The notes under the pieces: model-generated
What the model saw: the letters and a program-made list of their open reading frames with translations, nothing else
Databases searched by the model: none
What the model was told of the DNA's origin: nothing
Translations under genes and position numbers: made by a program
Part shown: piece by piece, positions 2,406-39,523 of the stretch
Layout of the letters: each line of letters opens with the position of its first letter
How positions within the stretch are numbered: the stretch's first letter is position 1
DNA from: Escherichia coli
Lineage (GTDB): Bacteria; Pseudomonadota; Gammaproteobacteria; Enterobacterales; Enterobacteriaceae
DNA length: 64,000 nt
Strand: one strand, 5' to 3'
Assembly: GCF_013315695.1 (NCBI RefSeq)
Contig: NZ_CP054353.1

Positions 2406-2665
2406 GTTAAGTCTCCTTGTCGATCACCCGCAAAACAGTATTGCAGGTCACAGGGTTAGCAGAAAATGTTGTCAACACAAGACAGGCTTGCGAGATATGT
2501 TTGAGAATACCACTTTATCCCGCGTCAGGGAGAGGCAGTGCGTAAAAAGACGCGGACTCATGTGAAATACTGGTTTTTAGTGCGCCAGATCTCTATAATC
2601 TCGCGCAACCTATTTTCCCCTCGAACACTTTTTAAGCCGTAGATAAACAGGCTGGGACACTTCAC

Positions 2666-3124
2666 ATGAGCGAAAAATACATCGTCACCTGGGACATGTT
2701 GCAGATCCATGCACGTAAACTCGCAAGCCGACTGATGCCTTCTGAACAATGGAAAGGCATTATTGCCGTAAGCCGTGGCGGTCTGGTACCGGGTGCGTTA
2801 CTGGCGCGTGAACTGGGTATTCGTCATGTCGATACCGTTTGTATTTCCAGCTACGATCACGACAACCAGCGCGAGCTTAAAGTGCTGAAACGCGCAGAAG
2901 GCGATGGCGAAGGCTTCATCGTTATTGATGACCTGGTGGATACCGGTGGTACTGCGGTTGCGATTCGTGAAATGTATCCAAAAGCGCACTTTGTCACCAT
3001 CTTCGCAAAACCGGCTGGTCGTCCGCTGGTTGATGACTATGTTGTTGATATCCCGCAAGATACCTGGATTGAACAGCCGTGGGATATGGGCGTCGTATTC
3101 GTCCCGCCAATCTCCGGTCGCTAA
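2666..3124 (+). CDS. gpt: Xanthine-guanine phosphoribosyltransferase
   Basis: 152-aa ORF starting [23 protein letters not shown]. The PRPP-binding motif [11 protein letters not shown] is present. Confidence 0.97.
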
Positions 3125-3131
3125 TCTTTTC

Positions 3132-3163
3132 AACGCCTGGCACTGCCGGGCGTTGTTCTTTTT
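3132..3163 (+). terminator. Rho-independent terminator after gpt
   Basis: aacgcc (3132..3137) pairs with ggcgtt (3149..3154). A T-rich run extends to 3163. Confidence 0.5.
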
Positions 3164-3215
3164 AACTTCAGGCGGGTTACAATAGTTTCCAGTAAGTATT
3201 CTGGAGGCTGCATCC

Positions 3216-4460
3216 ATGACACAGGCAAACCTGAGCGAAACCCTGTTCAAACCCCGCTTTAAACATCCTGAAACCTCGACGCTAGTCCGCCGCTTTAATC
3301 ACGGCGCACAACCGCCTGTGCAGTCGGCCCTTGATGGTAAAACCATCCCTCACTGGTATCGCATGATTAACCGTCTGATGTGGATCTGGCGCGGCATTGA
3401 CCCACGTGAAATCCTCGACGTCCAGGCGCGTATTGTGATGAGCGATGCCGAACGTACCGACGATGATTTATACGATACGGTGATTGGCTACCGCGGCGGC
3501 AACTGGATTTATGAGTGGGCTACCCAGGCGATGGTGTGGCAACAAAAAGCCTGTGCGGAAGAAGATCCGCAACTCAGCGGTCGACACTGGCTGCATGCGG
3601 CTACGTTGTACAACATTGCTGCCTATCCTCATCTGAAAGGAGATGACCTGGCCGAGCAAGCGCAGGCTTTGTCAAACCGCGCCTATGAAGAGGCCGCTCA
3701 GCGTCTGCCGGGCACGATGCGGCAGATGGAGTTTACCGTACCCGGCGGTGCGCCCATCACCGGCTTTTTGCATATGCCGAAAGGTGATGGCCCGTTCCCG
3801 ACAGTATTAATGTGTGGTGGTCTGGATGCGATGCAGACGGACTATTACAGCCTGTATGAACGTTATTTTGCGCCGCGCGGCATTGCGATGCTGACTATTG
3901 ATATGCCGTCGGTGGGCTTTTCTTCAAAATGGAAGCTCACCCAGGACTCCAGCCTGTTGCATCAGCACGTCTTAAAGGCGCTGCCTAACGTACCGTGGGT
4001 AGATCACACTCGCGTCGCGGCCTTTGGTTTCCGTTTCGGCGCTAACGTTGCCGTGCGTCTGGCATACCTTGAATCGCCGCGTCTGAAAGCGGTTGCCTGT
4101 CTTGGTCCGGTAGTTCATACCCTGTTGAGTGATTTTAAGTGCCAGCAACAGGTGCCGGAAATGTATCTTGACGTTCTGGCGAGCCGTTTGGGGATGCATG
4201 ATGCTTCCGACGAAGCGTTGCGCGTGGAGCTGAATCGCTATTCATTAAAAGTGCAAGGATTGCTGGGACGTCGCTGCCCAACGCCAATGTTATCAGGCTA
4301 CTGGAAGAACGATCCGTTCAGCCCGGAAGAGGACTCACGCTTAATCACCTCATCATCTGCTGACGGTAAATTGTTAGAGATCCCATTTAACCCGGTGTAT
4401 CGGAATTTTGACAAAGGTCTTCAGGAAATCACCGACTGGATCGAAAAACGATTGTGTTAA
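3216..4460 (+). CDS. frsA: Fermentation/respiration switch protein, alpha/beta hydrolase
   Basis: 414-aa ORF starting [27 protein letters not shown]. Recognised as FrsA, with conserved synteny. Confidence 0.95.
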
Positions 4461-4919
<459 letters not shown>

Positions 4920-4927
4920 GTGAAATG

Positions 4928-4950
4928 TGCCGGATGCATCACATCCGGCA
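4928..4950. terminator. Hairpin shared by convergent crl and phoE
   Basis: tgccggatg (4928..4936) pairs with catccggca (4942..4950). Confidence 0.5.
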
Positions 4951-4957
4951 ATATCCA

Positions 4958-6013
4958 TTAAAACTGATAGGTCATGCCAACCGCGACAATATCATCATTA
5001 TTGATGTTCAGCTTATTATCGCTATCCAGTTGGTTTATTTTATAATCAACAAATGCCGACATATTTTTGTTGAAATAATACGTAGCACCAACATCGATAT
5101 AATTGACCAGATCTTCATCACCGATGCCTTCAATATCTTTCCCTTTCGATAAGACATAACCCAGCGACGGACGCAGACCAAAGTCAAACTGGTATTGGGC
5201 GACCGCTTCAAAGTTCTGTGTCTTATTGGCAAAGCCGCCAGTTATTGGCGTCATTTTGCGTGTTTCAGAATAGAAAGTTGCCAGATAAATATTATTGGCA
5301 TCGTATTTCAGACCTGTTGCCCATGCTTCTGCACGCTTGCCTGTGCCACGGCTTTGCAGGTTCTGCTCGTTGGTGCGATCAGAGTTGGTATAGGCTCCAC
5401 TGATGGCGAAATCGCTGCCACCAAAGTCATATGTCAATGACGTGCCGAAGCCATCGCCGTTTTGCTTTTTAACGTCGCGGTTTTCGTTTTTCCCTTGATA
5501 TTGCAGGGTTAAGTTCAGACCATCGATAACGCCGAAGAAGTCGGTGTTCCTATACGTCGCCAGACCGCTGGCACGTTTGGTCATAAAGTTGTCGGTCTGT
5601 GCGGAGGAGTCGCCACCAAACTCCGGGAACATATCGGTCCAGGCTTCCACGTCATACAGCGCGCCCAGGTTACGACCATAATCGAAAGAACCCAAATCTT
5701 TATATTTCAACCCGGCAAAAGCGAGACGCGTTTTTTGCTGTGCAGTATCACTCTCCGCTTTATTACCGGCAAACTCTGCTTCCCACCGACCATAACCCGT
5801 CAGTTGATCGTTAATTTGTGTTTCGCCTTTAAAACCAAAACGGATATAACTTTGGTCGCCATCTTTACTGTCATTATCGCTCATATAATGCATGGCTTTA
5901 ACTTTGCCATAGACATCCAGTTTATTACCGTCTTTGTTATATATTTCTGCGGCCTGTACGGATGCCGATGCCACAATGCCCATCACCACTAATGCCAGAG
6001 TGCTCTTTTTCAT
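4958..6013 (-). CDS. phoE: Phosphoporin PhoE (outer membrane porin)
   Basis: ORF track 4958..6019. I start at the second Met ([21 protein letters not shown] signal peptide). The C-terminus ends in the porin-type ...MTYQF. Confidence 0.95.
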
Positions 6014-6300
6014 TTTCATTCCTGATTTTAATTAACGCGCGAATATTCAGCGGGAGAGCCCCGTTGAAAACAGGAAAGTTTTTAACCTGAGATTGTTAAA
6101 GATATATTACAGATTAATGATATTCTTAAAATGTGGTAATTTATTAAATCTGTAATAAAAGCGTAAACAACTGCCGCTACGCTTGCTGATCCCGCGCAAC
6201 AAAACGCCATGCTTTGCTTGCAGATGGTTGGCAACCGACGACAGTCCTGCTAAAACGTTCGTTTGATATCATTTTTCCTAAAATTGAATGGCAGAGAATC

Positions 6301-7404
6301 ATGAGTGACAGCCAGACGCTGGTGGTAAAACTCGGCACCAGTGTGCTAACAGGCGGATCGCGCCGCCTGAACCGTGCCCATATCGTTGAACTTGTTCGCC
6401 AGTGCGCGCAGTTACATGCCGCCGGGCATCGGATTGTTATTGTGACGTCGGGCGCGATCGCCGCCGGACGTGAGCACCTGGGTTACCCGGAACTGCCAGC
6501 GACTATCGCCTCGAAACAACTGCTGGCGGCGGTAGGGCAGAGTCGACTGATTCAACTGTGGGAACAGCTGTTTTCGATTTATGGCATTCACGTCGGGCAA
6601 ATGCTGCTGACCCGTGCTGATATGGAAGATCGTGAACGCTTCCTGAACGCCCGCGACACCCTGCGTGCGTTGCTCGATAACAATATCGTTCCGGTAATCA
6701 ATGAGAACGATGCTGTTGCTACGGCAGAGATTAAGGTCGGCGATAACGACAATCTTTCTGCGCTGGCGGCGATTCTGGCGGGTGCCGATAAACTGTTGCT
6801 GCTGACCGATCAAAAAGGTTTGTATACCGCTGACCCGCGCAGCAATCCGCAGGCAGAACTGATTAAAGATGTTTACGGCATTGATGACGCACTGCGCGCG
6901 ATTGCCGGTGACAGCGTTTCAGGCCTCGGAACTGGCGGCATGAGTACCAAATTGCAGGCCGCAGACGTGGCTTGCCGTGCGGGTATCGACACCATTATTG
7001 CCGCGGGCAGCAAGCCGGGCGTTATTGGTGATGTGATGGAAGGCATCTCCGTCGGTACGTTGTTCCATGCCCAGGCGACTCCGCTTGAAAACCGCAAACG
7101 CTGGATTTTCGGTGCGCCGCCGGCGGGGGAAATCACGGTAGATGAAGGGGCAACCGCCGCCATTCTTGAACGCGGCAGCTCCCTGTTGCCGAAAGGCATT
7201 AAAAGCGTGACTGGCAACTTCTCGCGTGGTGAAGTCATCCGCATTTGCAACCTCGAAGGTCGCGATATCGCCCACGGCGTCAGTCGTTACAACAGCGATG
7301 CATTACGCCGTATTGCCGGACACCACTCGCAAGAAATTGATGCAATACTGGGATATGAATACGGCCCGGTTGCCGTTCACCGTGATGACATGATTACCCG
7401 TTAA
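6301..7404 (+). CDS. proB: Glutamate 5-kinase
   Basis: ORF track 6214..7404. The canonical start [16 protein letters not shown] is at ATG 6301. Confidence 0.95.
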
Positions 7405-7415
7405 GGAGCTGGCCG

Positions 7416-8669
7416 ATGCTGGAACAAATGGGCATTGCCGCGAAGCAAGCCTCTTATAAATTAGCGCAACTCTCCAGCCGCGAAAAAAATCGTGTGCTGG
7501 AAAAAATCGCCGATGAACTGGAAGCACAAAGCGAAATCATCCTCAACGCTAACGCCCAGGATGTTGCTGACGCGCGTGCCAATGGCCTTAGCGAAGCGAT
7601 GCTTGACCGTCTGGCACTGACGCCCGCACGGCTGAAAGGCATTGCCGACGATGTGCGCCAGGTGTGCAATCTCGCCGATCCGGTGGGGCGGGTAATCGAT
7701 GGCGGCGTACTGGACAGTGGCCTGCGTCTGGAGCGTCGTCGCGTACCGCTGGGGGTTATTGGCGTGATTTATGAAGCGCGCCCGAACGTGACGGTTGATG
7801 TCGCTTCGCTGTGCCTGAAAACAGGTAACGCAGTGATCCTGCGCGGCGGCAAAGAAACCTGTCGCACTAACGCTGCAACGGTAGCGGTGATTCAGGACGC
7901 CCTGAAATCCTGCGATTTACCGGCAGGCGCAGTACAGGCGATTGATAATCCTGACCGCGCGCTGGTCAGTGAAATGCTGCGTATGGATAAATACATCGAC
8001 ATGCTGATCCCGCGCGGCGGGGCTGGTTTGCATAAACTGTGCCGCGAACAGTCGACAATCCCGGTGATCACTGGTGGTATAGGCGTATGCCATATTTACG
8101 TTGATGAAAGCGCAGAGATCGCTGAAGCATTAAAAGTGATCGTCAACGCGAAAACTCAGCGACCGAGCACATGTAATACGGTAGAAACCTTGCTGGTAAA
8201 TAAAAACATCGCCGATAGCTTCCTGTCCGCATTAAGCAAGCAAATGGCGGAAAGCGGCGTGACGTTACACGCAGATGCTGCTGCGCTGGCGCAGTTGCAG
8301 ACAGGCCCCGCGAAGGTGGTGGCGGTTAAAGCCGAAGAGTATGACGATGAGTTTCTGTCATTAGATTTGAACGTCAAAATCGTCAGCGATCTTGACGATG
8401 CCATCGCCCATATTCGTGAACACGGCACGCAACACTCCGATGCGATCCTGACCCGCGATATGCGCAACGCCCAGCGTTTTGTTAACGAAGTGGATTCGTC
8501 CGCTGTTTACGTTAACGCCTCTACGCGTTTTACCGACGGCGGCCAGTTTGGTCTGGGAGCGGAAGTGGCGGTAAGCACACAAAAACTCCACGCGCGTGGC
8601 CCGATGGGCCTGGAAGCACTGACCACTTACAAGTGGATCGGCATCGGTGATTACACCATTCGTGCGTAA
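7416..8669 (+). CDS. proA: Gamma-glutamyl phosphate reductase
   Basis: 417-aa ORF starting [25 protein letters not shown], immediately downstream of proB. Confidence 0.97.
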
Positions 8670-8783
8670 ATAAAACCGGGTGATGCAAAAGTAGCCATTT
8701 GATTCACAAGGCCATTGACGCATCGCCCGGTTAGTTTTAACCTTGTCCACCGTGATTCACGTTCGTGAACATGTCCTTTCAGG

Positions 8784-8859
8784 GCCGATATAGCTCAGTT
8801 GGTAGAGCAGCGCATTCGTAATGCGAAGGTCGTAGGTTCGACTCCTATTATCGGCACCA
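8784..8859 (+). tRNA. thrW: tRNA-Thr (anticodon CGU)
   Basis: 76 nt, gccgatatagctcagttggtagagcagcgcattCGTaatgcgaaggtcgtaggttcgactcctattatcggcacca. It folds as a cloverleaf with an encoded CCA end, downstream of proA as in E. coli. Confidence 0.95.
8841..8859 (+). other. attL core (thrW 3' end, actcctattatcggcacca)
   Basis: Near-identical copies occur in inverted orientation at 32590..32608 (18 of 19 nt) and, degenerate, at 39506..39523. Confidence 0.75.
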
Positions 8860-8971
8860 TTCAAACATCTCCCCAAGTCTACTAAAGTCTTTCAAAACCC
8901 CTTATAATCCGCGTATTAAAGCCCCGTTCGTCTTTTGACGTCTACTAAAGTCCCTCAAAATCTACGGTCAG

Positions 8972-8993
8972 ATGGGGGTACTTATGGGGGTAT
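8972..8993 (+). repeat. Putative integrase arm-type site (atgggggtacttatgggggtat)
   Basis: The inverse complement recurs with 21 of 22 identity at 39583..39604, about 60 nt from the degenerate att copy. A third half-site, gtaccccca, lies at 9015..9023. Two copies of gtctactaaagtc sit upstream at about 8877 and 8941. Confidence 0.55.
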
Positions 8994-9024
8994 TTGCTGT
9001 TCGGTTTAGTGGAGGTACCCCCAA

Positions 9025-12546: not shown

Positions 12547-13201
12547 CCGTCCAGAAGAAGATATTTTCACTGGCTGGTATGTCACCAAAATCCAGCAATA
12601 TGACAGCAAAGTCTGGCATTAATACAGCAGATACAAGCAAAGTTTATCATTTTCTGGTGGTAGGAGCGGATGCCTTAACTATGTCAGAAATTACGGTCGA
12701 TGGTGTTAGCGTTGAGAAGGTCAGCGGCTGCGCCAGAGAATTTCTGGTCGTAGATGGCTTTCTCTGCTCGCGTAGTGACTCCACAAAAACCTTCGTCCAT
12801 ACGCGCGACGTTAACGAAATGAGCGCGATGTATTGTGCATCTGGTGCTTCCAATACTGAGTTTTCGGAGTCCATAAAAAAGAGCTTGCCGTTATGCGGCA
12901 ACACGGTTTATGGTTATAAGGCACCTCATAAAACGGGTGCCGGGATTGGCGTCCTGAAAATTCTGAAGGCGACATATGACGCGCCGAGCGTCTTTTTTTA
13001 TGTCGTAGGTCTGACTCACCCATTTTTTGGGCGTTGGTGTATAATCCAGCGCCTTTGTCAATCAATGGTGGCTCAGGCGGGGGCTTCTTCGGAAGCGCCG
13101 GTATCCTTCAGAGCCGGTTACGCCAACCCTGTCTGGGCTACCACCAGCGAAATTGGCGTTTCCGGTGGTAGCGTAACCTGCTATCTGAAGGAGGCTGCCA
13201 C
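12540..13201 (+). CDS. 5' two-thirds of a 355-codon open frame, possibly an Ash-family-like protein. The true 3' end is unresolved.
   Basis: ATG 12540 overlaps the upstream stop (ATGCTAA). The frame stays open to 13607. From 13202 onward better-supported genes occupy the DNA, and 13068..13180 looks like structured RNA. Confidence 0.3.
13068..13180 (+). ncRNA. Candidate C4/CI-like antisense immunity RNA
   Basis: Three hairpins lie directly upstream of the icd-like gene. The first is a UUCG-loop stem at 13083..13096. The second is ccgg/ccgg at 13098..13117; its loop tccttcaga (13104..13112) is complementary to tctgaagga (13184..13192) across the icd-like Shine-Dalgarno. The third is a 9-bp stem, 13137..13145 with 13164..13172. 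The ends of the RNA are not defined. Confidence 0.35.
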
Positions 13202-31155: not shown

Positions 31156-31189
31156 TGCCCCGCCAGCTATAATCGCGGGGCCTCGTTTT
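31156..31189 (+). terminator. Possible terminator after ykgJ
   Basis: gccccgc (31156..31162) pairs with gcggggc (31174..31180). The sequence ctcgttttt follows. Confidence 0.45.
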
Positions 31190-31340
31190 TCAGGGATAAC
31201 AAACCCCGAAACTTCTTCCATCTGCCAGCAACAATGCCTCTTCCTCTATAGTGTTCTCCGGATCTACAGCATCCTGAAGTAGCGCGATGTACTCACTGGC
31301 TATCTGCATCAGAAAGTTAAAAACAATGTTTTTAACCTAT

Positions 31341-31369
31341 AAAAATGGCGCTGTATTTGCGCCATTTTT
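31341..31369. terminator. Bidirectional hairpin downstream of yagU
   Basis: aaaaatggcg (31341..31350) pairs with cgccattttt (31360..31369). A/T runs flank it on both sides. Confidence 0.6.
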
Positions 31370-31382
31370 ATCATTCAATGCA

Positions 31383-32589: not shown

Positions 32590-32608
32590 TGGTGCCGATA
32601 AGAGGAGT
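32590..32608 (-). other. thrW 3'-end repeat (att copy), inverted in the present arrangement
   Basis: tggtgccgataagaggagt is the reverse complement of actcctCttatcggcacca. This matches thrW 8841..8859 at 18 of 19 positions. Confidence 0.75.
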
Positions 32609-32751
32609 AAAACACTCGATTAATCTCGTGTTAATGCCATCACCTACGACCATTACTAATTGATTGAATCTTATAGAAAAAATTATCATTTTCTATGCGT
32701 TACAATCAATTTTCACATTACAAACGCTCCGACACTTTAGCCGGGGAGTTT

Positions 32752-34029
32752 ATGAGATACAAGCCCAATCAATACATAATCTGTGATTCTTACGGTAACT
32801 ACTATTTGAGGATCACGTTGCCTGTGTATATGCAGCCCTTTTTTGAAGGAAAAAGGACGTTTGTCAGAAGTCTGCACACAAGTAGTCTTCGTGTTGCACG
32901 TAGAAAGCGTGATCAGATTGCAGATGAATACCATTGTCTACGGGAGAGTGTCGCCCCTGTAAACAGCACAATAGAGAACACGCTGGAACTGTTACGCAGT
33001 AAGGCTAAATACGCCAAAACAGCTACCAGAATGCAAGATACAGCGTCTTCGTGTCCGTCATTGCTTAAAATTCTTGAAATCTACCTGACAATTAACAGCA
33101 CGAAGAAGAAGCCAGCCACTTTAGCTAAGGCAAGAAAAGCGGTAGAGATGTTTCTCTCCTACCGTAAAAAGCCTGATATTGCATTGCAAGATGTAAGCCG
33201 CACCACTGTTACAGGCTGGATAGAACACATGCAAAAAACCCTTTCACAACAATCAATTGCAAATTATATCAGCCCAATGGCCCAGCTATGGGAGTTAGCT
33301 TCATCACGTTACCACGATGCGCCAGAAAGGGCGCTCTCCCCCTGGCGAGGGCATAGGCTTGATGTGGCACAAAGTAGAGAGAGCTACGAGGCATTTTCTA
33401 ACAAAGAGCTATTGCAGGTGTTGCAAGTATTTTCCGGTGATTCAGCAGAAAACAAAGAAATGATGGCTTTGTGTCTTATCGGTGCTTATACAGGTATGCG
33501 GATCAATGAGATAGCAAGTCTCACAATAGACGATGTGAAAGAGATCGAAGGTGTGCTGTGTTTTGAAATCACACAGGGAAAAACGAAAGCTGCGGCACGT
33601 CTTGTGCCTGTGCATAGCCTTATCACTCCGTTGGTGTTGTCGCTGCGTGAAAAGCCTCATAATGGCTTTTTGTTCTATCACGCCAGCATTACAGAGCGTG
33701 CTGATGGTAAACGTTCCACGTGGCACACGCAGAGATTTACAAGAGCTAAACGAAAGGCTTTAGGGGAAAAGGGAACAGAAAGGAAGGTGTTTCATTCTCT
33801 GAGACACGGAGTAGCACAGCTTCTTGATCGAAATCAAATTCCAGAAGACAGGATCGCCCTTCTCCTGGGCCATACACGCGGCAATACAGAGACATTCCGC
33901 ACATATAGCAAGAATGCAGCTTCTCCAGTAGAGCTTAAAAACTATATTGAGCTTCTACGCTACCCTGAAATAGAGAAAGGCTTATCAATCAATAAAAAAT
34001 CAAATTTAATGCGCAAAACAACGCCATAG
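32752..34029 (+). CDS. Tyrosine recombinase/integrase
   Basis: ORF track 32695..34029. I prefer ATG 32752 (MRYKPNQYIICDSYGNYYLRITLP), which follows the SD ggggag. The C-terminus has HSLRHG...LLGH...Y motifs. Confidence 0.85.
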   Translation: MRYKPNQYIICDSYGNYYLRITLPVYMQPFFEGKRTFVRSLHTSSLRVARRKRDQIADEYHCLRESVAPVNSTIENTLELLRSKAKYAKTATRMQDTASSCPSLLKILEIYLTINSTKKKPATLAKARKAVEMFLSYRKKPDIALQDVSRTTVTGWIEHMQKTLSQQSIANYISPMAQLWELASSRYHDAPERALSPWRGHRLDVAQSRESYEAFSNKELLQVLQVFSGDSAENKEMMALCLIGAYTGMRINEIASLTIDDVKEIEGVLCFEITQGKTKAAARLVPVHSLITPLVLSLREKPHNGFLFYHASITERADGKRSTWHTQRFTRAKRKALGEKGTERKVFHSLRHGVAQLLDRNQIPEDRIALLLGHTRGNTETFRTYSKNAASPVELKNYIELLRYPEIEKGLSINKKSNLMRKTTP

Positions 34030-34110
34030 ACGCAATAAAGAGGCTTCAACATAGATTGGTAGCCTCTTTTATAATTACATCGTTACAGAGCGTTTTAGAG
34101 GCATTTACGG

Positions 34111-34824
34111 CTATTCCTGTTTAAAGGCAGGAGTAATAGTGTCTTCACCTTCACTACTTGATTTTTCAGTGTTAACACGTTTTTTCATATTCGCCCCGAT
34201 GTTCTTAGATGGCTGTGTTTTGATAGCTACAGTGTTTACAGTACCATAAGAAACTAATCTTATTTGTTCAAAGCTAAGATCAAATACCAGGGATTCGCTT
34301 GCCTCTTCTGTGTATTCGATGCCTGTTAAAACAACGTTCTCAAAAGTTTTATTTTCTGTAACAAGAAGAAAAGGCTGTCTACTGTCCATAATCTGATTCA
34401 AGTAGTCTATAGCTAATGATCTTCTGTTCCCGTTCACCCCTGCACTCTTTAACAAGCCAGGATCGCTTTTAATCGGTGTTTCAGTGATACGCCCTTTAAG
34501 AGAGAACTTATTGTTTTTAATTTGAACGTGATCAGACACAGTAGCACCATTTTCTACGGGGTAGCTTGTGACATCTGCCGAACGTCTCACGTTCACATCG
34601 TCAACACTATCAAAGGCCAGTGCCATATAATTTTCATAAACGTCATTACCAGAAGATGCCAAGCCACTGGTAACAATAGCAAATCCGTTCTCTCCTTTTG
34701 TTTTATTAGCTTTGCTATTTTCGTTTTTTGTAGAATTTATATCTTGTTCTGCTTTGTAAACAGCCTGAACGTGTTGTTCTGGAGTATTTGCTGCACGTAT
34801 GGTTAAAATCCCGGCGGTCGCCAT
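34111..34824 (-). CDS. Phage tail protein, Dit-like (distal tail / baseplate N-terminal domain)
   Basis: 237 aa. ...RSADVTSYPVENGATVSDHVQIKNNKFSLKGRITETP...FLLVTENKTFENVVLTGIEYTE...LVFDLSFEQIR resembles Dit-like tail proteins. It follows a tape-measure-like ORF. Confidence 0.45.
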   Translation of the reverse strand: MATAGILTIRAANTPEQHVQAVYKAEQDINSTKNENSKANKTKGENGFAIVTSGLASSGNDVYENYMALAFDSVDDVNVRRSADVTSYPVENGATVSDHVQIKNNKFSLKGRITETPIKSDPGLLKSAGVNGNRRSLAIDYLNQIMDSRQPFLLVTENKTFENVVLTGIEYTEEASESLVFDLSFEQIRLVSYGTVNTVAIKTQPSKNIGANMKKRVNTEKSSSEGEDTITPAFKQE

Positions 34825-34846
34825 AATAATAATTTTCCTTGTAATG

Positions 34847-35799
34847 TTATGGCGGGAATTCCCCGCCGTTGGATTGTCCTGATAAGCTGGTTAATGTTAA
34901 TGATTTCAAGAAGCTATCCCGACTTGCTCTCGCTGTAAAATCCACATAATCGCTCAATCGTCCGGTGTCTGATTCGATAGTTAGCGGCACTTCTGTTACC
35001 ACTTCAAATGTAGGATTCAGATTAAACACAGGAGATAAATTATAAGCTGGAGTTGTCATTGCAAGATTATTTAAAGCACCCTGTTTGAGATTGGTTATCG
35101 GTGCTTCATTGACTGACATTTTTACATCTGACACAGAAGAATTATCATCGAAAAGCAATCCCTTAATTGTGTTAAAGAGAGAATGACTATTATCAGGTGT
35201 AGTTGTTGCAGTGCCAGCGCCTTTATATTGATTAGGAACGAGATTAGAAAGATTCTGTTTCATCCCTTCATTGCTTAATGGCGGTGCATCACCCATATTT
35301 TTCTGAATAGCATCTGTCTTATCATCATTACGATTAAACCAGTTTACAATCTTCATAATAGCTTCAAAGAGACTTCCTGTAGCTTCTCCCAGCTTCGTAA
35401 AATACGGAGTGAGATTAGAAAGGTTTTTCATAAACTCTTCCGTTACTTTTGGATCGAGAGATTTCATAAAGCCGTCTACGAATGCTACTTGTCTTGCATC
35501 AGAAAGCTGTGAAAGCTGTCTGTTTAGTTCTCTGAATTTAACAATAGAGTCTTGCTGTGTTTCTGTTAGCCATTTTCCAGAGGCTTTTTGCTGATTAATA
35601 CTTTCTTGTACATCTTTAACGGAACGTTGCCAATATTTTGACGTAAGCATCAAATCATCGCCCAGGTCTTCTAAACGTTGTCCAATTTGGGAGTCTGAAA
35701 ACCCTTTTTTCATCATTCCATTAACAGCCTTAGAAATTAATCCAGCCGGATTATCAGCAAATTTTTTAAGGTCGCTTTTGTTAATAACACCGATGTTTA
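34847..35799 (-). pseudogene. C-terminal part of a tape-measure-like tail protein, cut by IS2
   Basis: The first residues (MSGDSGGQS) of ORF 34847..35827 are encoded by the IS2 end. The rest is Gln/Asn/Ser-rich and helical. No upstream half is found beyond IS2. Confidence 0.4.
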
Positions 35800-35890
35800 T
35801 AGACTGGCCCCCTGAATCTCCAGACAACCAGTATCACTTATTTAAGTGATAGTCTTAATACTAGTTTTTAGACTAGTCATTGGAGAGCAG

Positions 35891-36256
35891 ATGATTGATG
35901 TCTTAGGACCGGAGAAACGCAGACGGCGTACCACACAGGAAAAGATCGCAATTGTTCAGCAGAGCTTTGAACCGGGGATGACGGTCTCCCTCGTTGCCCG
36001 GCAACATGGTGTAGCAGCCAGCCAGTTATTTCTCTGGCGTAAGCAATACCAGGAAGGAAGTCTTACTGCTGTCGCCGCCGGAGAACAGGTTGTTCCTGCC
36101 TCTGAACTTGCTGCCGCCATGAAGCAGATTAAAGAACTCCAGCGCCTGCTCGGCAAGAAAACGATGGAAAATGAACTCCTCAAAGAAGCCGTTGAATATG
36201 GACGGGCAAAAAAGTGGATAGCGCACGCGCCCTTATTGCCCGGGGATGGGGAGTAA
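35891..36256 (+). CDS. insC: IS2 OrfA (InsC)
   Basis: Starts [33 protein letters not shown] at ATG 35891. The ORF track begins upstream at 35846. Confidence 0.92.
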
Positions 36257-37119
36257 GCTTAGTCAGCCGTTGTCTCCGGGTGTCGCGTGCGCAGTTGCAC
36301 GTCATTCTCAGACGAACCGATGACTGGATGGATGGCCGCCGCAGTCGTCACACTGATGATACGGATGTGCTTCTCCGTATACACCATGTTATCGGAGAGC
36401 TGCCCACGTATGGTTATCGTCGGGTATGGGCGCTGCTTCGCAGACAGGCAGAACTTGATGGTATGCCTGCGATCAATGCCAAACGTGTTTACCGGATCAT
36501 GCGCCAGAATGCGCTGTTGCTTGAGCGAAAACCTGCTGTACCGCCATCGAAACGGGCACATACAGGCAGAGTGGCCGTGAAAGAAAGCAATCAGCGATGG
36601 TGCTCTGACGGGTTCGAGTTCTGCTGTGATAACGGAGAGAGACTGCGTGTCACGTTCGCGCTGGACTGCAGTGATCGTGAGGCACTGCACTGGGCGGTCA
36701 CTACCGGCGGCTTCAACAGTGAAACAGTACAGGACGTCATGCTGGGAGCGGTGGAACGCCGCTTCGGCAACGATCTTCCGTCGTCTCCAGTGGAGTGGCT
36801 GACGGATAATGGTTCATGCTACCGGGCTAATGAAACACGCCAGTTCGCCCGGATGTTGGGACTTGAACCGAAGAACACGGCGGTGCGGAGTCCGGAGAGT
36901 AACGGAATAGCAGAGAGCTTCGTGAAAACGATAAAGCGTGACTACATCAGTATCATGCCCAAACCAGACGGGTTAACGGCAGCAAAGAACCTTGCAGAGG
37001 CGTTCGAGCATTATAACGAATGGCATCCGCATAGTGCGCTGGGTTATCGCTCGCCACGGGAATATCTGCGGCAGCGGGCTTGTAATGGGTTAAGTGATAA
37101 CAGATGTCTGGAAATATAG
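36214..37119 (+). CDS. insD: IS2 OrfB transposase (InsD)
   Basis: 301 aa starting [30 protein letters not shown], with a DDE integrase core. Confidence 0.92.
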
Positions 37120-37432
37120 GGGCAAATCCATTAACACATAAGCAATCAGTATGATTGGTTAGGTGATTACTCTTACTGCGCACAGCGCAATAGATTTCTT
37201 CGTGGGCGTTACCGCCAACGAAGTTACACGAAGAAAGTAACGCTTTGCTTTCGGTGTGAGCGGAACGGGCCAGCCACGAAGCCCGAAAGGTAGCGGAGTA
37301 AGGCTGCTTGCCAGAGAGTGAAGCTAACGCCGGAAGGCAAAAGATCATATATATAGATATAAAGAATATTATTATTATGATCTAATTAATAATCTAATAT
37401 AGTTTTATTAATAGTCTTATTGTAGTTCACAG

Positions 37433-38274
37433 TGACCTACCCCCTAGCTCACTATGACCTACCGTTACTACCAATCATCACATAGCACTCACTCTGTGTA
37501 ATGCCTTTCTATGTGTGTGCCATAATCCCCTATATTCCCTGTGTAAATCATAGAATATCCCTAACTTATTCCTGTGTAATTCCATACTAAAAATTCAATG
37601 AAAAGTAGCTTAAAAGTGCAATTCTTACTTTCTTCACTTTTACATCACTTTCGCAAATCCTTGTGTAGTGCGGCCTACAGAGCACCATCAGAAATTGTTG
37701 GCTAAAAATTGTTCTGCTTGTTTCTTAACGAGTTTTCTCGTTTGTGCAAATTTTAAAATTTATTTTGTTTTTACAGCCTTATTTCGTGTAATGCGTGGCA
37801 TAGCAAGCCCTTTTCTTGTGTTGTCAAGACATTTGGCAACGTTCAAACATCTGTTTAGAAATGCCAAATTGTTGATCTAACAAATAAACCTGTATAAACA
37901 GAACACCATTTAATCTATTCCCCTGTGTAATCCACTACATCACACAATAAAAACAAAAAAACCTTTAATTATGTTTCATAGCATACAAAAGTCAACAGAA
38001 GCCCTCTCGTGCTCCTACGTAAAAAATCCATCACTTTTCCCCTGATACATCAACTCAAGGCGTTCTATGTGTTCCTTAGTGCATATTACGTTTATTATGT
38101 TAAATTGATTTTGGCCTATATTTTGACCTGCACCCGCATAAACACTGGTTTCATCGCTTACACTCCTTGTGAGACGTGGTGCTGTTTCTAGCATCTGATC
38201 CGACATAAAACCGATCATTCTCGTGTTTAGTGAAAGTTTAGTGAGAGACATTACAGAAAGGCTTTCTGTGTAAT
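37433..38274 (+). repeat. Field of dispersed short direct repeats (consensus YCCTGTGTAAT, plus TGACCTACC x2)
   Basis: ctgtgtaat-type copies occur at 37494, 37539, 37572, 37923 and 38266. Degenerate copies are at 37661 and 37784, and one inverted copy at 38944..38952. tgacctacc occurs at 37433 and 37455. The DNA is AT-rich with no credible ORF across 37350..38014. Confidence 0.6.
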
Positions 38275-38398
38275 GATTTAATAGGTAAAAACGATGTTGA
38301 TTACGCAAGAAAATTCCTTGCTGATATTTGGGGATTCTGGATTTTCCAGATCGGGGGGCGCTGAAAATCGCGTTAAGCACCTCTCGCAATCTAGCCAT
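38015..38398 (-). CDS. Hypothetical protein (127 aa)
   Basis: This is the only sizeable ORF in the AT-rich field. No family was recognised, and it contains one ctgtgtaat copy. Confidence 0.3.
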   Translation of the reverse strand: MARLREVLNAIFSAPRSGKSRIPKYQQGIFLRNQHRFYLLNHYTESLSVMSLTKLSLNTRMIGFMSDQMLETAPRLTRSVSDETSVYAGAGQNIGQNQFNIINVICTKEHIERLELMYQGKSDGFFT

Positions 38399-38414
38399 AA
38401 GGGAAGGGATATAG

Positions 38415-38580
38415 GTATTTAGATGTATTTATAGCTATTTATGGCTATTTATTTTTTATTTGCCTTTATTTAAAAATAACCTTATAAATCAATAAGATAC
38501 ACAACTATCTGTTTATATTTTAATCAATTAAATCAAGTTTAATACCCTTAAATCACCTGAAAATACCCTTAAATACCCCA
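38415..38580 (+). repeat. AT-rich tract with tatttat/gctatttat units and aatacccttaaat x2
   Basis: gtatttatagctatttatggctatttatttttt lies at 38425..38457. aatacccttaaat occurs at 38541..38553 and 38562..38574. The layout resembles a DNA-unwinding element next to iterons. Confidence 0.45.
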
Positions 38581-38742
38581 ATAATTAATTTTAAGGTTTT
38601 CCGTGTTCTCTTCTGCATTATGAAAATGCAAAATAAGGCACAAAACAAGCGCACAGACGCATTAAACACACATCACCTATACATCCCTATACCAAGCAAT
38701 GAAAATAGCGTTAGAATGCGTCCTGTTGCGTTCTGGAGATTT

Positions 38743-38901
38743 TCAGAAATCCTCTCTAAGCCATTTCAACTCATTAAGGAGTTTTCTTTCTTCGTTCTCT
38801 CTCTGTTTACGCTCTAGCCAGGCTTTTCCTTCTGGCGTAGACAGGAACTTACGAGCGTGAATCTTGCGGTTATTACGTTTGATAGCTGCAATGTTTTTCA
38901 T
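38743..38901 (-). CDS. Possible small basic protein (52 aa)
   Basis: MKNIAAIKRNNRKIHARKFLSTPEGKAWLERKQRENEERKLLNELKWLREDF. It is below the ORF-track cut-off and no homology was recognised. Confidence 0.25.
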   Translation of the reverse strand: MKNIAAIKRNNRKIHARKFLSTPEGKAWLERKQRENEERKLLNELKWLREDF

Positions 38902-39505
38902 CGTGTGCCTCTGTATTCATATGAAAATTAACAAGTTACATACTACACAGGGAGACTACGCATAAAACACAATACAAGTAAAGATACATTTTCAAGACAA
39001 TAGGAGCCATAAAGCGCCTTTGATGGGCTACCCCAAAAAATAAGCGCCGTAGGCGTATCCACTAAAAGGGCTTTTTCACAAAAGCTATGAAGTCTTAGCA
39101 GTTCTTCTCTTATCAGGCACCCGTTGTACTCCGGTGGACGAAACCGTGCTAGAGCTTGATTCTTTCCCGATCAAGTTAGGTTTTGAAGAGGTGGGCTTTG
39201 ATCCACTATTGCACTTAAAACTCTTCCCATCATTTAGCCTGTTTATCCTCTGCAACGTCTCACGACGTGTAGCATCATTGGACACCGCGCCAGGTGTGGA
39301 ACATCTTGCTAAGAGTTTTGGTAGAAGGTTTAGAGACGGTGGCACGTCTTCCAGCTTCAAAGGAACTTGTTACGAGGTTGAGCCTGGGAACTACTCGCCC
39401 ATACGTGTTACACTACCAAAGCCCATAACAACGTATAGGCGTTTGTAAGTGATAACAGAAGATACAATTTCTTAGAGAAGTTAAGCTAAGTTATTGATTT
39501 TCTTG

Positions 39506-39523
39506 ATTGTGCGATAATAGGAA
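39506..39523 (-). other. Degenerate thrW 3'-end repeat (att copy between E1 and E2)
   Basis: ttgtgcgataataggaac compared with tggtgccgataataggagt, the reverse complement of the thrW end. The 11-nt core cgataatagga matches exactly. An arm-type repeat lies 60 nt away. Confidence 0.5.

Follow-up and report, generated by a model that had tools for sequence, protein, structure and literature searches.

The window analysed here is a stretch of 64,000 nucleotides (64 kb) from an Escherichia coli genome (contig NZ_CP054353.1 of assembly GCF_013315695.1), in which a mobile element named E2 spans positions 32590-39523 between imperfect 19-bp copies of the 3' end of tRNA-Thr. At 37433-38600 this element contains a field of short oriented repeats and AT-rich DNA, in which an initial annotation had seen a possible plasmid or phage origin or a partition site. 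The field is considered here, with a probability of about 0.6 and on the basis of sequence comparison, as the region that would act in cis for the replication and packaging of a degraded satellite of about 12 kb that would exploit virulent phi92-like myophages (Stephanstirmvirinae), because candidate origin repeats of the element's own stand beside a copy of the site at which the helper genome ends are cut. The genes and features on which this reading is based are listed below, with "att" denoting attachment sites.

32590-32608: left att repeat of E2 (TGGTGCCGATAAGAGGAGT), an imperfect copy of the tRNA-Thr 3' end
32695-34029, plus strand: tyrosine integrase of E2 (RefSeq annotation of the homologue, and PF00589)
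34111-34824, minus strand: Dit-like, or tail-tube-initiator, protein (PF21821, E 3e-29)
34847-35799, minus strand: C-terminal remnant, cut by IS2, of a tape-measure-like gene (609 aa when intact; phrog_16051)
35800-37130, plus strand: insertion sequence IS2, with flanks GTTTA and TTAAC
37341-37420: AT tract (83-88% AT) directly abutting the putative iterons, candidate DNA-unwinding element
37423-37463, plus strand: two putative iterons with 22-bp spacing, TAG(T/C)TCACnnTGACCTACC, with internal dyad symmetry
38322-38399, plus strand: homologue of the right boundary of the phi92-like direct terminal repeat
39507-39523: degenerate right att repeat (TGTGCGATAATAGGAAC)

The flanks of IS2 are unlike, so that the insertion at the edge of the field has no target duplication, as had been noted initially. 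When the window was aligned to the intact element of APEC O1 (L001; NC_008563 295123-306762), IS2 was found to replace L001 positions 2609-9000 (6.4 kb). The capsid gene, a helix-turn-helix initiator-like gene and the initial 960 bp of the non-coding stretch were lost with this segment. The initial annotation had supposed that a cognate gene might have been deleted, and the missing segment does encode a 229-aa winged-helix initiator-like protein. Homology of the window to the intact element stops at 39522. The window copy is clearly defective, since the initiator and capsid genes were removed by IS2 and only two iterons are left.

Intact relatives of E2 are widespread. A 2-kb region was matched in 754 of 5426 complete E. 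coli genomes (about 14%), nearly always in the chromosome. In APEC O1, the element (about 11.7 kb) lies between an integrase and the tRNA-Thr gene thrW, next to proA, and contains in order the Dit-like protein (PF21821), the 609-aa tape-measure-like protein, the major capsid protein (PF03864), small open reading frames (ORFs), the 229-aa helix-turn-helix protein, two further small ORFs, a gene-free stretch of 2.84 kb, a 52-aa ORF and the att site. The intact relatives measure about 12 kb and carry integrase, capsid, tape-measure-like, Dit-like and winged-helix initiator-like genes, the element genes all being on the minus strand, downstream of the field. The same architecture was found at a tRNA-Gly site near yecR, in the leader of the thiM riboswitch, on an F-type plasmid and in a Phytobacter genome, and the gene order of about 12 kb recurs at at least three attachment sites and in another genus. 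A scan of genome contigs for distant relatives returned 5 loci, among which only that of Phytobacter clearly has the non-coding region of the element. IS elements are frequent in the relatives. No terminase, portal or other tail gene was found in the element by Pfam, PHROG or RefSeq annotation; the capsid protein is the sole head protein recognised, and the other ORFs gave no family match. As for the initial proposal of an origin or partition site, its first half is retained in the form of an origin-like module within cis-acting DNA of a mobile element, and its second half was abandoned, ParA and ParB being neither annotated nor matched by a partition family in the relatives examined (L001, L002, L007 and L008). 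The sopA/parB genes near L005 are part of its host F-type plasmid.

The link with a helper was provided by a search of phage genomes with the field, which returned a single class of match: positions 38350-38395 are 95.7% identical to positions 318-363 of phi92 (46 nt), and in a Klebsiella relative the match extends to 78 nt. The phi92 record annotates its left direct terminal repeat as 1-343, and the 46-nt match therefore straddles the right boundary of this repeat. The concatemer junctions of phi92, Citrobacter phage Tr1 and Klebsiella phage phi1_175008 were aligned, and their non-coding DNA was found to be largely diverged, with a few islands kept. At the right boundary, a core (AAAATCGCGTTA/AGCACCTCTCGCAA, the slash marking here and below an end of the repeat) is invariant over 26 nt in the three phages, and the window is identical to it at 26 of 26 positions (38364-38389, AAAATCGCGTTAAGCACCTCTCGCAA), the equivalent of the phage genome end falling between 38375 and 38376 (GCGTTA/AGCACC). 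The left boundary has a conserved motif of its own in the same phages (TGTTG/AGC...TCTTAAAAG), and the two boundaries share GTTR/AGCAC. These limits agree with other phage records: the first nucleotide of PQ360875, an independent record of the Klebsiella phage, falls precisely on the homologous left boundary, and phage WPEC4 has an exact terminal repeat of 328 bp that ends at the homologous GCGTT(A)/AGCAC. For phage BME3, a terminal repeat of 342 bp was determined by PhageTerm (PMC12210895).

Relatives of E2 carry other versions of this site. In variant C (L008, L005), TGATATTTGAGAATTGTCGCTGCGTGGACCTGACG...CGCGTTA/AAC is 81% identical over 83 nt to Phapecoctavirus (phAPEC8-like) phages, at their repeat boundary, and variant B (L009) has a third version, of which the left half matches phi92-like phages. 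Such helper-genus-specific versions argue for continuing selection. The shared segment is non-coding, as its eight codons are without synonymous change across diverged phages and phi92 has only a 30-aa ORF there. Over 38015-38398, identity reaches 97-99.7% across elements whose Dit and tape-measure genes are 70-85% identical, which argues for selection on the DNA itself. The structural genes point to the same phages, the Dit-like and tape-measure-like proteins being closest to those of Stephanstirmvirinae. The Dit-like protein of the window is 58-60% identical to the tail tube initiator of Justusliebigvirus, 56% to that of Phapecoctavirus and about 28% to that of rV5-like phages, whereas the L008-type protein is 53% identical to Phapecoctavirus and 50% to Justusliebigvirus; the tape-measure-like protein is 31-53% identical to the adjacent phage gene, and for the capsid protein the identity is 22% (E 7e-7).

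Some further observations concern the phage terminal repeats. The repeat of phi92 (L003/L010, positions about 75-92) contains a near-perfect Fur-box-like sequence, AAATGATAATCATTATC, further AATGATAAT copies stand just upstream of the right boundary, and GATAAT-rich repeats are likewise present in the Klebsiella and WPEC4 phages (L019, L020, L048). Three conserved hairpin-forming islands (for example GCCTAYGCSGGAMACRTAGGC and TATGTAGCTTGCAAnnATTGCAAGCG) precede the left end of the repeat by about 420 to 255 nt (L006+L003, L019, L020), within the otherwise diverged non-coding DNA of three Stephanstirmvirinae genera. A likeness between AATACCCTTAAATACCCC and phi92 TTACCCCTAAATATCC, upstream of the left cut, was dropped because it is not common to Tr1 or the Klebsiella phages.

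The second component of the field is the origin-like module. The initially reported pair of tgacctacc 22 nt apart was recovered, TGACCTACC being present twice at this distance within two 19-nt units at 37423 and 37445, and it is part of a 22-bp unit (TAGCTCACnnTGACCTACCCCC) that forms four tandem near-palindromic copies in L001, with AT-rich DNA on both sides of the array. The initiator-like protein of the family has six unrelated N-terminal types, and its C-terminal modules are shuffled among the variants; N- and C-terminal modules are likewise shuffled in lambdoid O proteins. All six N-terminal types match PHROG families of replication-initiation, O-like or DnaD-like helicase-loader proteins (E 7e-11 to 9e-6). 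The 229-aa protein reached 24.3 bits against Pfam HTH_36, just below the threshold of 25, and no solved structure was found to match it. Arrays of the 22-bp unit (the A repeat) accompany the type A initiator in 3 of 3 elements (4, 6+1 and 5+1 copies in L001, L002 and L021, respectively), and nine other elements have at most one copy, with a tandem array in 0 of 9. Type C elements mostly carry a C repeat, which type A elements carry too. In other variants this place is taken by 18-23-bp arrays of their own, and the corresponding position in the Phytobacter relative by four palindromic ACATCAWTTTGATGT repeats; one element can contain several different repeat cassettes. The origin-like region is 1.5-2 kb away from the initiator gene. 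The 22-bp repeats are likely to be true iterons, belonging to an origin that was served by the initiator deleted by IS2. They are separated by about 900 bp from the terminal-repeat homologue at 38322-38399.

The boxes of CTGTGTAAT type are arranged as follows.

37494-37792, plus strand: proximal box cluster (37494, 37539, 37572, 37661, 37784)
37923-37931, plus strand: box copy 6, CTGTGTAAT
38266-38274, plus strand: box copy 7, CTGTGTAAT, about 100 nt upstream of the equivalent of the helper genome-end cut
38942-38950, minus strand: inverted box (CTGTGTAGT on the minus strand), 41-49 nt upstream of the start of the 52-aa ORF

A pattern scan gave the same counts as the initial annotation on the plus strand: exact copies at 37494, 37572, 37923 and 38266, which are the only ones in the whole 64-kb window, one copy with a single mismatch at 37539 (CTGTGTAAA) and two degenerate copies at 37661 (TTGTGTAGT) and 37784 (TCGTGTAAT). 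The inverted copy announced near 38944 was located at 38942-38950, with one mismatch. When 37433-38600 was shuffled 1000 times with preservation of dinucleotides, any 9-mer was present four times or more in only 9 of the 1000 shuffles. In L001, 7 boxes (at most one mismatch, plus strand) were counted inside about 4.1 kb, where about 0.4 would be expected by our own estimate at equal base frequencies. Every E. coli variant has boxes, in 1-7 copies (at most one mismatch, plus strand) and regardless of its initiator type; the segment at about 37440-37700, with the proximal cluster, can be aligned in every variant of the family, and box copies 1-3 have a divergence of 0.00-0.04 versus 0.06-0.10 in their flanks. 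Their spacing is irregular (45, 33, 351 and 343 nt), and in Phytobacter the counterpart of the box at 37661 has kept its flanks, the motif being replaced by TGCGCCAT. Owing to this irregular spacing, to their presence with every initiator type and to the loss of the motif in Phytobacter, the initial reading of the boxes as origin repeats was not supported, the 22-bp units being those that track type A. With low confidence, the boxes are considered as auxiliary protein-binding sites of the origin and packaging region. A candidate partner, proposed from its sequence pattern, is a conserved 55-aa protein of ribbon-helix-helix-like pattern (PRTYLHVDPEIFKVLFAEAKKRQIMVSDLMLEIITEA) encoded beside the non-coding region (L001 7663-7830) and deleted from the window; it has no Pfam or PHROG match, and it is missing from type C elements, which nonetheless carry boxes.

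Several known motifs were compared with the boxes and rejected. As a helper motif, CTGTGTAAT has 3 copies in a 146-kb phi92-like genome for about 1.8 expected, and no k-mer is common to the helper and the non-coding region of the element. As a sigma-70 -10 hexamer, it lacks the A of position 2. By our reading it is not a DnaA or IHF site, and it did not fit, by eye, the Tus/Ter, Pho-box, TyrR-box or LexA-box consensus sequences. For a CsrA sponge, the A-N-GGA motif would fall on the minus strand, yet GGA is found by eye in only about half of the boxes.

From the homology, the architecture and the partial co-variation described above, we infer the following steps of excision, replication and packaging. 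The element would excise upon infection by the helper; the initiator would bind the 22-bp iterons, melt the AT tract and recruit a replisome; and the helper terminase would then recognise and cut the copied terminal-repeat boundary, on concatemers or circles, and package the element, possibly into capsids made of its own capsid protein. The boxes, the phased A/T arrays of 10-bp period and a palindromic island (see below) would be auxiliary sites for protein binding or bending. The family to which E2 belongs was accordingly interpreted as satellite-like rather than as a plasmid or an ordinary prophage: it is integrative, with an integrase and att repeats, it is, with about 12 kb, too small and too incomplete to make virions by itself, and it is specifically linked to a helper through the versions of the terminal-repeat boundary and through the Dit-like and tape-measure-like proteins.

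Several points weigh against this satellite reading. Only the right boundary (GCGTTA/AGCACCTCTC) is present in the elements, where the left one (TGTTG/AGCNNNTTNTCTTAAAAG) gave no match above chance; in variants B and C, the site stands just after a serine invertase gene, and a role in recombination is possible. Type A is the sole type for which initiator and iterons co-vary cleanly, types B and D being inconsistent, and the repeat cassettes of types C and E are also found in type A elements. Neither TTWTNCACA nor TTNTNCACA or WATCAANNNNTTR (DnaA/IHF consensus) was found in the window or in the non-coding region of L001. An iteron origin is for these reasons, namely the unclean co-variation outside type A and the missing DnaA/IHF consensus, likely rather than established. 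Contigs of about 12 kb in public assemblies end in att repeats, and are thus integrated copies and not packaged genomes. Lastly, box copy 6 is no better conserved than its own flanks, and the boxes are absent from the Phytobacter relative. Regarding the missing left boundary, the GTTR/AGCAC shared by both helper boundaries leads to the speculation that a single copied site might serve both cuts, in a cos-like manner, which would explain that no left-boundary copy was found.

The public sequence collections also gave two separate observations. Matches to the 26-mer in IMG/VR are mostly contigs of 14-97 kb with isolate-like identifiers, together with two phage-sized contigs of about 149 kb. One contig of 12120 bp (L028, Logan SRR31598853) has ends that overlap by 13 nt, with a junction (TTATCCGACGATTAAAG) unlike the thrW att core, and may be a circular form or come from a fourth attachment site.

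Further features of the field and of its immediate surroundings are the following.

37150-37340, plus strand: GC-rich island between IS2 and the AT tract, with a predicted multi-hairpin fold, present only in some variants
37831-37876: palindromic island of 46 nt, ATTTGGCA-N23-TGCCAAAT, 85% conserved in Phytobacter
38410-38452: array of TATTTAT or GCTATTTAT with a 10-bp period, in a stretch of 82% AT just downstream of the cut-equivalent position
38541-38582, plus strand: pair of AATACCCTTAAAT with a 21-nt period (copies at 38541 and 38562), also present in L022
38743-38901, minus strand: 52-aa basic ORF, no family match, the surrounding DNA being 98-99% conserved across thrW variants

The run of tatttat units and the second pair of repeats reported by the initial annotation correspond to the array at 38410-38452 and to the two copies of AATACCCTTAAAT, respectively, both in DNA of 82% AT. 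The location of phased A/T tracts beside the terminase site suggests a bend or a platform for a small terminase. The run was also tried as a T4 late promoter (TATAAATA, gene strand), which was rejected since the helper shows no enrichment of the octamer: with 14 copies, it ranks 38th of 56 octamers that have this composition. The near-absence of coding capacity was confirmed: only the 52-aa ORF is annotated by RefSeq in homologous regions, and the 127-aa ORF has no family match and no sign of coding, its variable sites being distributed 6/7/7 over the codon positions and its frame being broken in relatives by frameshifts and a stop; nor has it any protein similarity to the Klebsiella phage ORF over the same site. 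Sigma-70-like promoters gave 3 weak matches, versus a mean of 7.9 in shuffles. The sequence of the GC-rich island (37150-37345) has a predicted fold of -69.3 kcal/mol (z = -3.25), none of 200 shuffles being as stable; five relatives have the island at 96-98% conservation, and others lack it. In Phytobacter, a GC-rich analogue (z = -2.5) has GTGAGCGG..AGCCAC..AAAGG..CTTGCCAG in common with it. The island may encode a non-coding RNA beside the origin. Rfam 15, applied at the gathering threshold, gave no match in the field, and the intact relative had none with E up to 1.

In many variants, a 183-aa serine DNA invertase (PF00239, phrog_125) is encoded immediately upstream of the terminal-repeat-like site (L008 10646-11197, L005 8400-8951, L009 10977-11515; also L021-L026), where the window type has the segment with box copies 6-7. 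As the invertase is present in some variants and unrelated cargo in others, this location looks like a hotspot for accessory genes. Genes for a GmrSD-type restriction endonuclease, an HNH endonuclease and a DUF4365 protein were observed near elements at other attachment sites (L009 12993-14564, L026 6972-7697, L021 6788-7828). In the window itself, E2 is inverted relative to thrW (8784-8859): the DNA that adjoins the tRNA in APEC O1 ends here at 39522, and the tRNA itself and proA are at 8864 and below, which indicates an inversion of roughly 8860-39522, with islands stacked between. Rfam detected isrK and C4 antisense RNA at 12921-13148 and an IS009 RNA at 31177-31377, pointing to other mobile elements between thrW and E2; C4 antisense RNA and isrK are typical of P1/P7- or P4-like immunity regions.

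Other explanations of the field were weighed against the satellite reading. That the CTGTGTAAT 9- to 11-mers are themselves iterons or centromere repeats, bound by a Rep or ParB protein since lost, would agree with their enrichment, orientation and partial conservation, and IS2 did delete an initiator-like gene. It was nevertheless judged unlikely: besides the irregular spacing, the boxes accompany all N-terminal types of the initiator (1-7 copies each), whereas sites of its own would be expected to change with the DNA-binding domain, and it is the 22-bp repeats that track type A; moreover, no ParA/ParB was annotated or detected in the four relatives named above, and the Phytobacter element has different palindromic repeats and misses the box motif. 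An action at the RNA level was also considered, on the model of the CI RNA immunity of P4, in which a long leader or non-coding transcript would carry repeated AUUACACAG(G) boxes on the gene strand; these would anneal to the complementary box that precedes the 52-aa ORF, the structured RNA of 37150-37340 contributing. The position of the element genes, all on the minus strand downstream of the field, the complementarity of 10-12 nt between the inverted copy and two direct boxes, the rarity of sigma-70-like promoters relative to shuffles and the stable folds of the GC-rich island and its Phytobacter analogue would all fit such a regulator. We find it quite improbable, as the complementarity is of seed length only, no Rfam family was matched, the copies of the island are 96-99% identical and too alike to show covariation, the island is missing from several variants, and both the 22-bp arrays and the terminal-repeat homology would be left unexplained.

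Just as improbable, in our judgement, is the explanation that a temperate relative of phi92-like phages left E2 and the related elements behind as inert remnants, with repeats and a terminal-repeat fragment that are functionless fossils. Degradation is clear in the window copy, the relatives often contain IS elements and the structural genes are phage-derived, all of which would be expected of remnants; they would not be expected to keep a gene order of about 12 kb at at least three attachment sites and in another genus, a terminal-repeat segment far better conserved (97-99.7%) than the Dit and tape-measure genes (70-85%), and versions of this site specific to the helper genus. The 78-nt segment might finally be a res- or hix-like site of the adjacent serine invertase or resolvase instead of a packaging signal, since in variants B and C the invertase stop codon is at most about 10 nt away from the beginning of this segment and since phi92 encodes a resolvase-family protein, gp053. 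This explanation is very improbable: window-type variants keep the site without any invertase, the site is in phages the physical end of the genome, far from gp053, and the invertase of the elements is only 28% identical to gp053. By eye, the 78-nt site has no likeness to gix or hix sequences.

If the satellite reading is extended to the relatives, E2 would be the decayed representative of a satellite family that is undescribed but widespread in E. coli and other Enterobacteriaceae, and which would parasitise virulent phi92-like and phAPEC8-like myophages, build or remodel particles with its own capsid, tape-measure and tail-tube-initiator proteins, and carry a modular iteron origin together with a genus-specific copy of the repeat boundary. 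This broader proposal is made tentatively, at slightly less than even odds. No description was found of satellites of phi92-like, Justusliebigvirus or Phapecoctavirus phages, or of a thrW satellite, in a literature search that left subscription journals mostly outside its scope, so that "undescribed" is provisional. If true, this would be the first satellite shown to exploit the terminal-repeat-type packaging of a large virulent coliphage. The phi92-like and phAPEC8-like phages are virulent coliphages of broad host range that are often isolated for therapy or biocontrol; a common chromosomal element with a copy of their genome-end site and with versions of their tail and capsid genes could interfere with them, could be transduced by them, and could explain part of the differences in susceptibility between strains. 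The homology also points to a candidate cut site in the phages, consisting of GTTR/AGCAC at both repeat boundaries and the invariant 26-nt core of the right one, of which no description was found in the literature searched. The conserved gene-free region of about 2.8 kb beside thrW in hundreds of E. coli genomes would thereby be explained. The importance of the window copy itself is lowered by its being a defective remnant, through which a widespread satellite-like family and a candidate terminase site are exposed.

Compared with known systems, the candidate origin resembles ori-lambda and the origins of iteron plasmids by its tandem dyad repeats of about 20 bp, spaced by two helical turns, beside an AT-rich tract, and the initiator resembles lambda O by its variable N-terminal DNA-binding module and its exchangeable C-terminal module. 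Unlike in lambda, this origin is 1.5-2 kb from the initiator gene and not inside it; unlike lambda and iteron plasmid origins, it has no DnaA/IHF consensus, and there are several repeat cassettes per element. As in P4, which uses the cos site of P2, packaging would proceed via a copied end-forming site of the helper. The helper family and the packaging chemistry are different from those of P4, and no match was obtained to its families of primase, capsid-size or transcription-activator proteins (P4 alpha, sid, psu, delta).

Phage-inducible chromosomal islands (PICIs), including the classical PICIs/SaPIs of Enterobacteria and the capsid-forming ones (cf-PICIs), are likewise integrative islands of about 10-15 kb with an integrase, and an own capsid gene is shared with cf-PICIs. 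In cf-PICIs, portal, protease, head-tail connector and small-terminase genes stand beside the capsid gene; in contrast, no portal, protease, connector or small terminase was detected in the element with Pfam and PHROG, nor was the primase-helicase or AlpA of PICIs detected there. The helper also differs, being virulent and of about 148 kb, and the element has tail genes in addition (tape-measure-like and tube initiator). Some PICIs are mentioned, in a passage of a study devoted to PLE, as copying the cos or pac site of their helper (10.1101/2024.04.22.590561). On the features tested, which lie outside PLE protein homology, E2 and its relatives do not belong to the P4, PICI, cf-PICI or PLE families.

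The closest working analogue is PLE (phage-inducible chromosomal island-like elements) of Vibrio cholerae, a satellite of the virulent myophage ICP1. In PLE, a mimic of the pac site (14 bp identical within 89 bp), needed for transduction, stands beside a validated origin in one intergenic region (10.1101/2024.04.22.590561). In the same way, E2 and its relatives are small integrative elements that would depend on a large virulent myophage, their candidate origin stands beside a short copied packaging site of the helper, and the element brings an initiator of its own, presumably taking the remaining replisome components from elsewhere. Unlike PLE, the element encodes capsid, tape-measure-like and tail-tube-initiator proteins of its own and integrates by a tyrosine integrase at tRNA or riboswitch sites, and it is known here from sequence alone. 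The helper, in addition, uses direct terminal repeats for its packaging, and what is copied is the boundary of the repeat itself.

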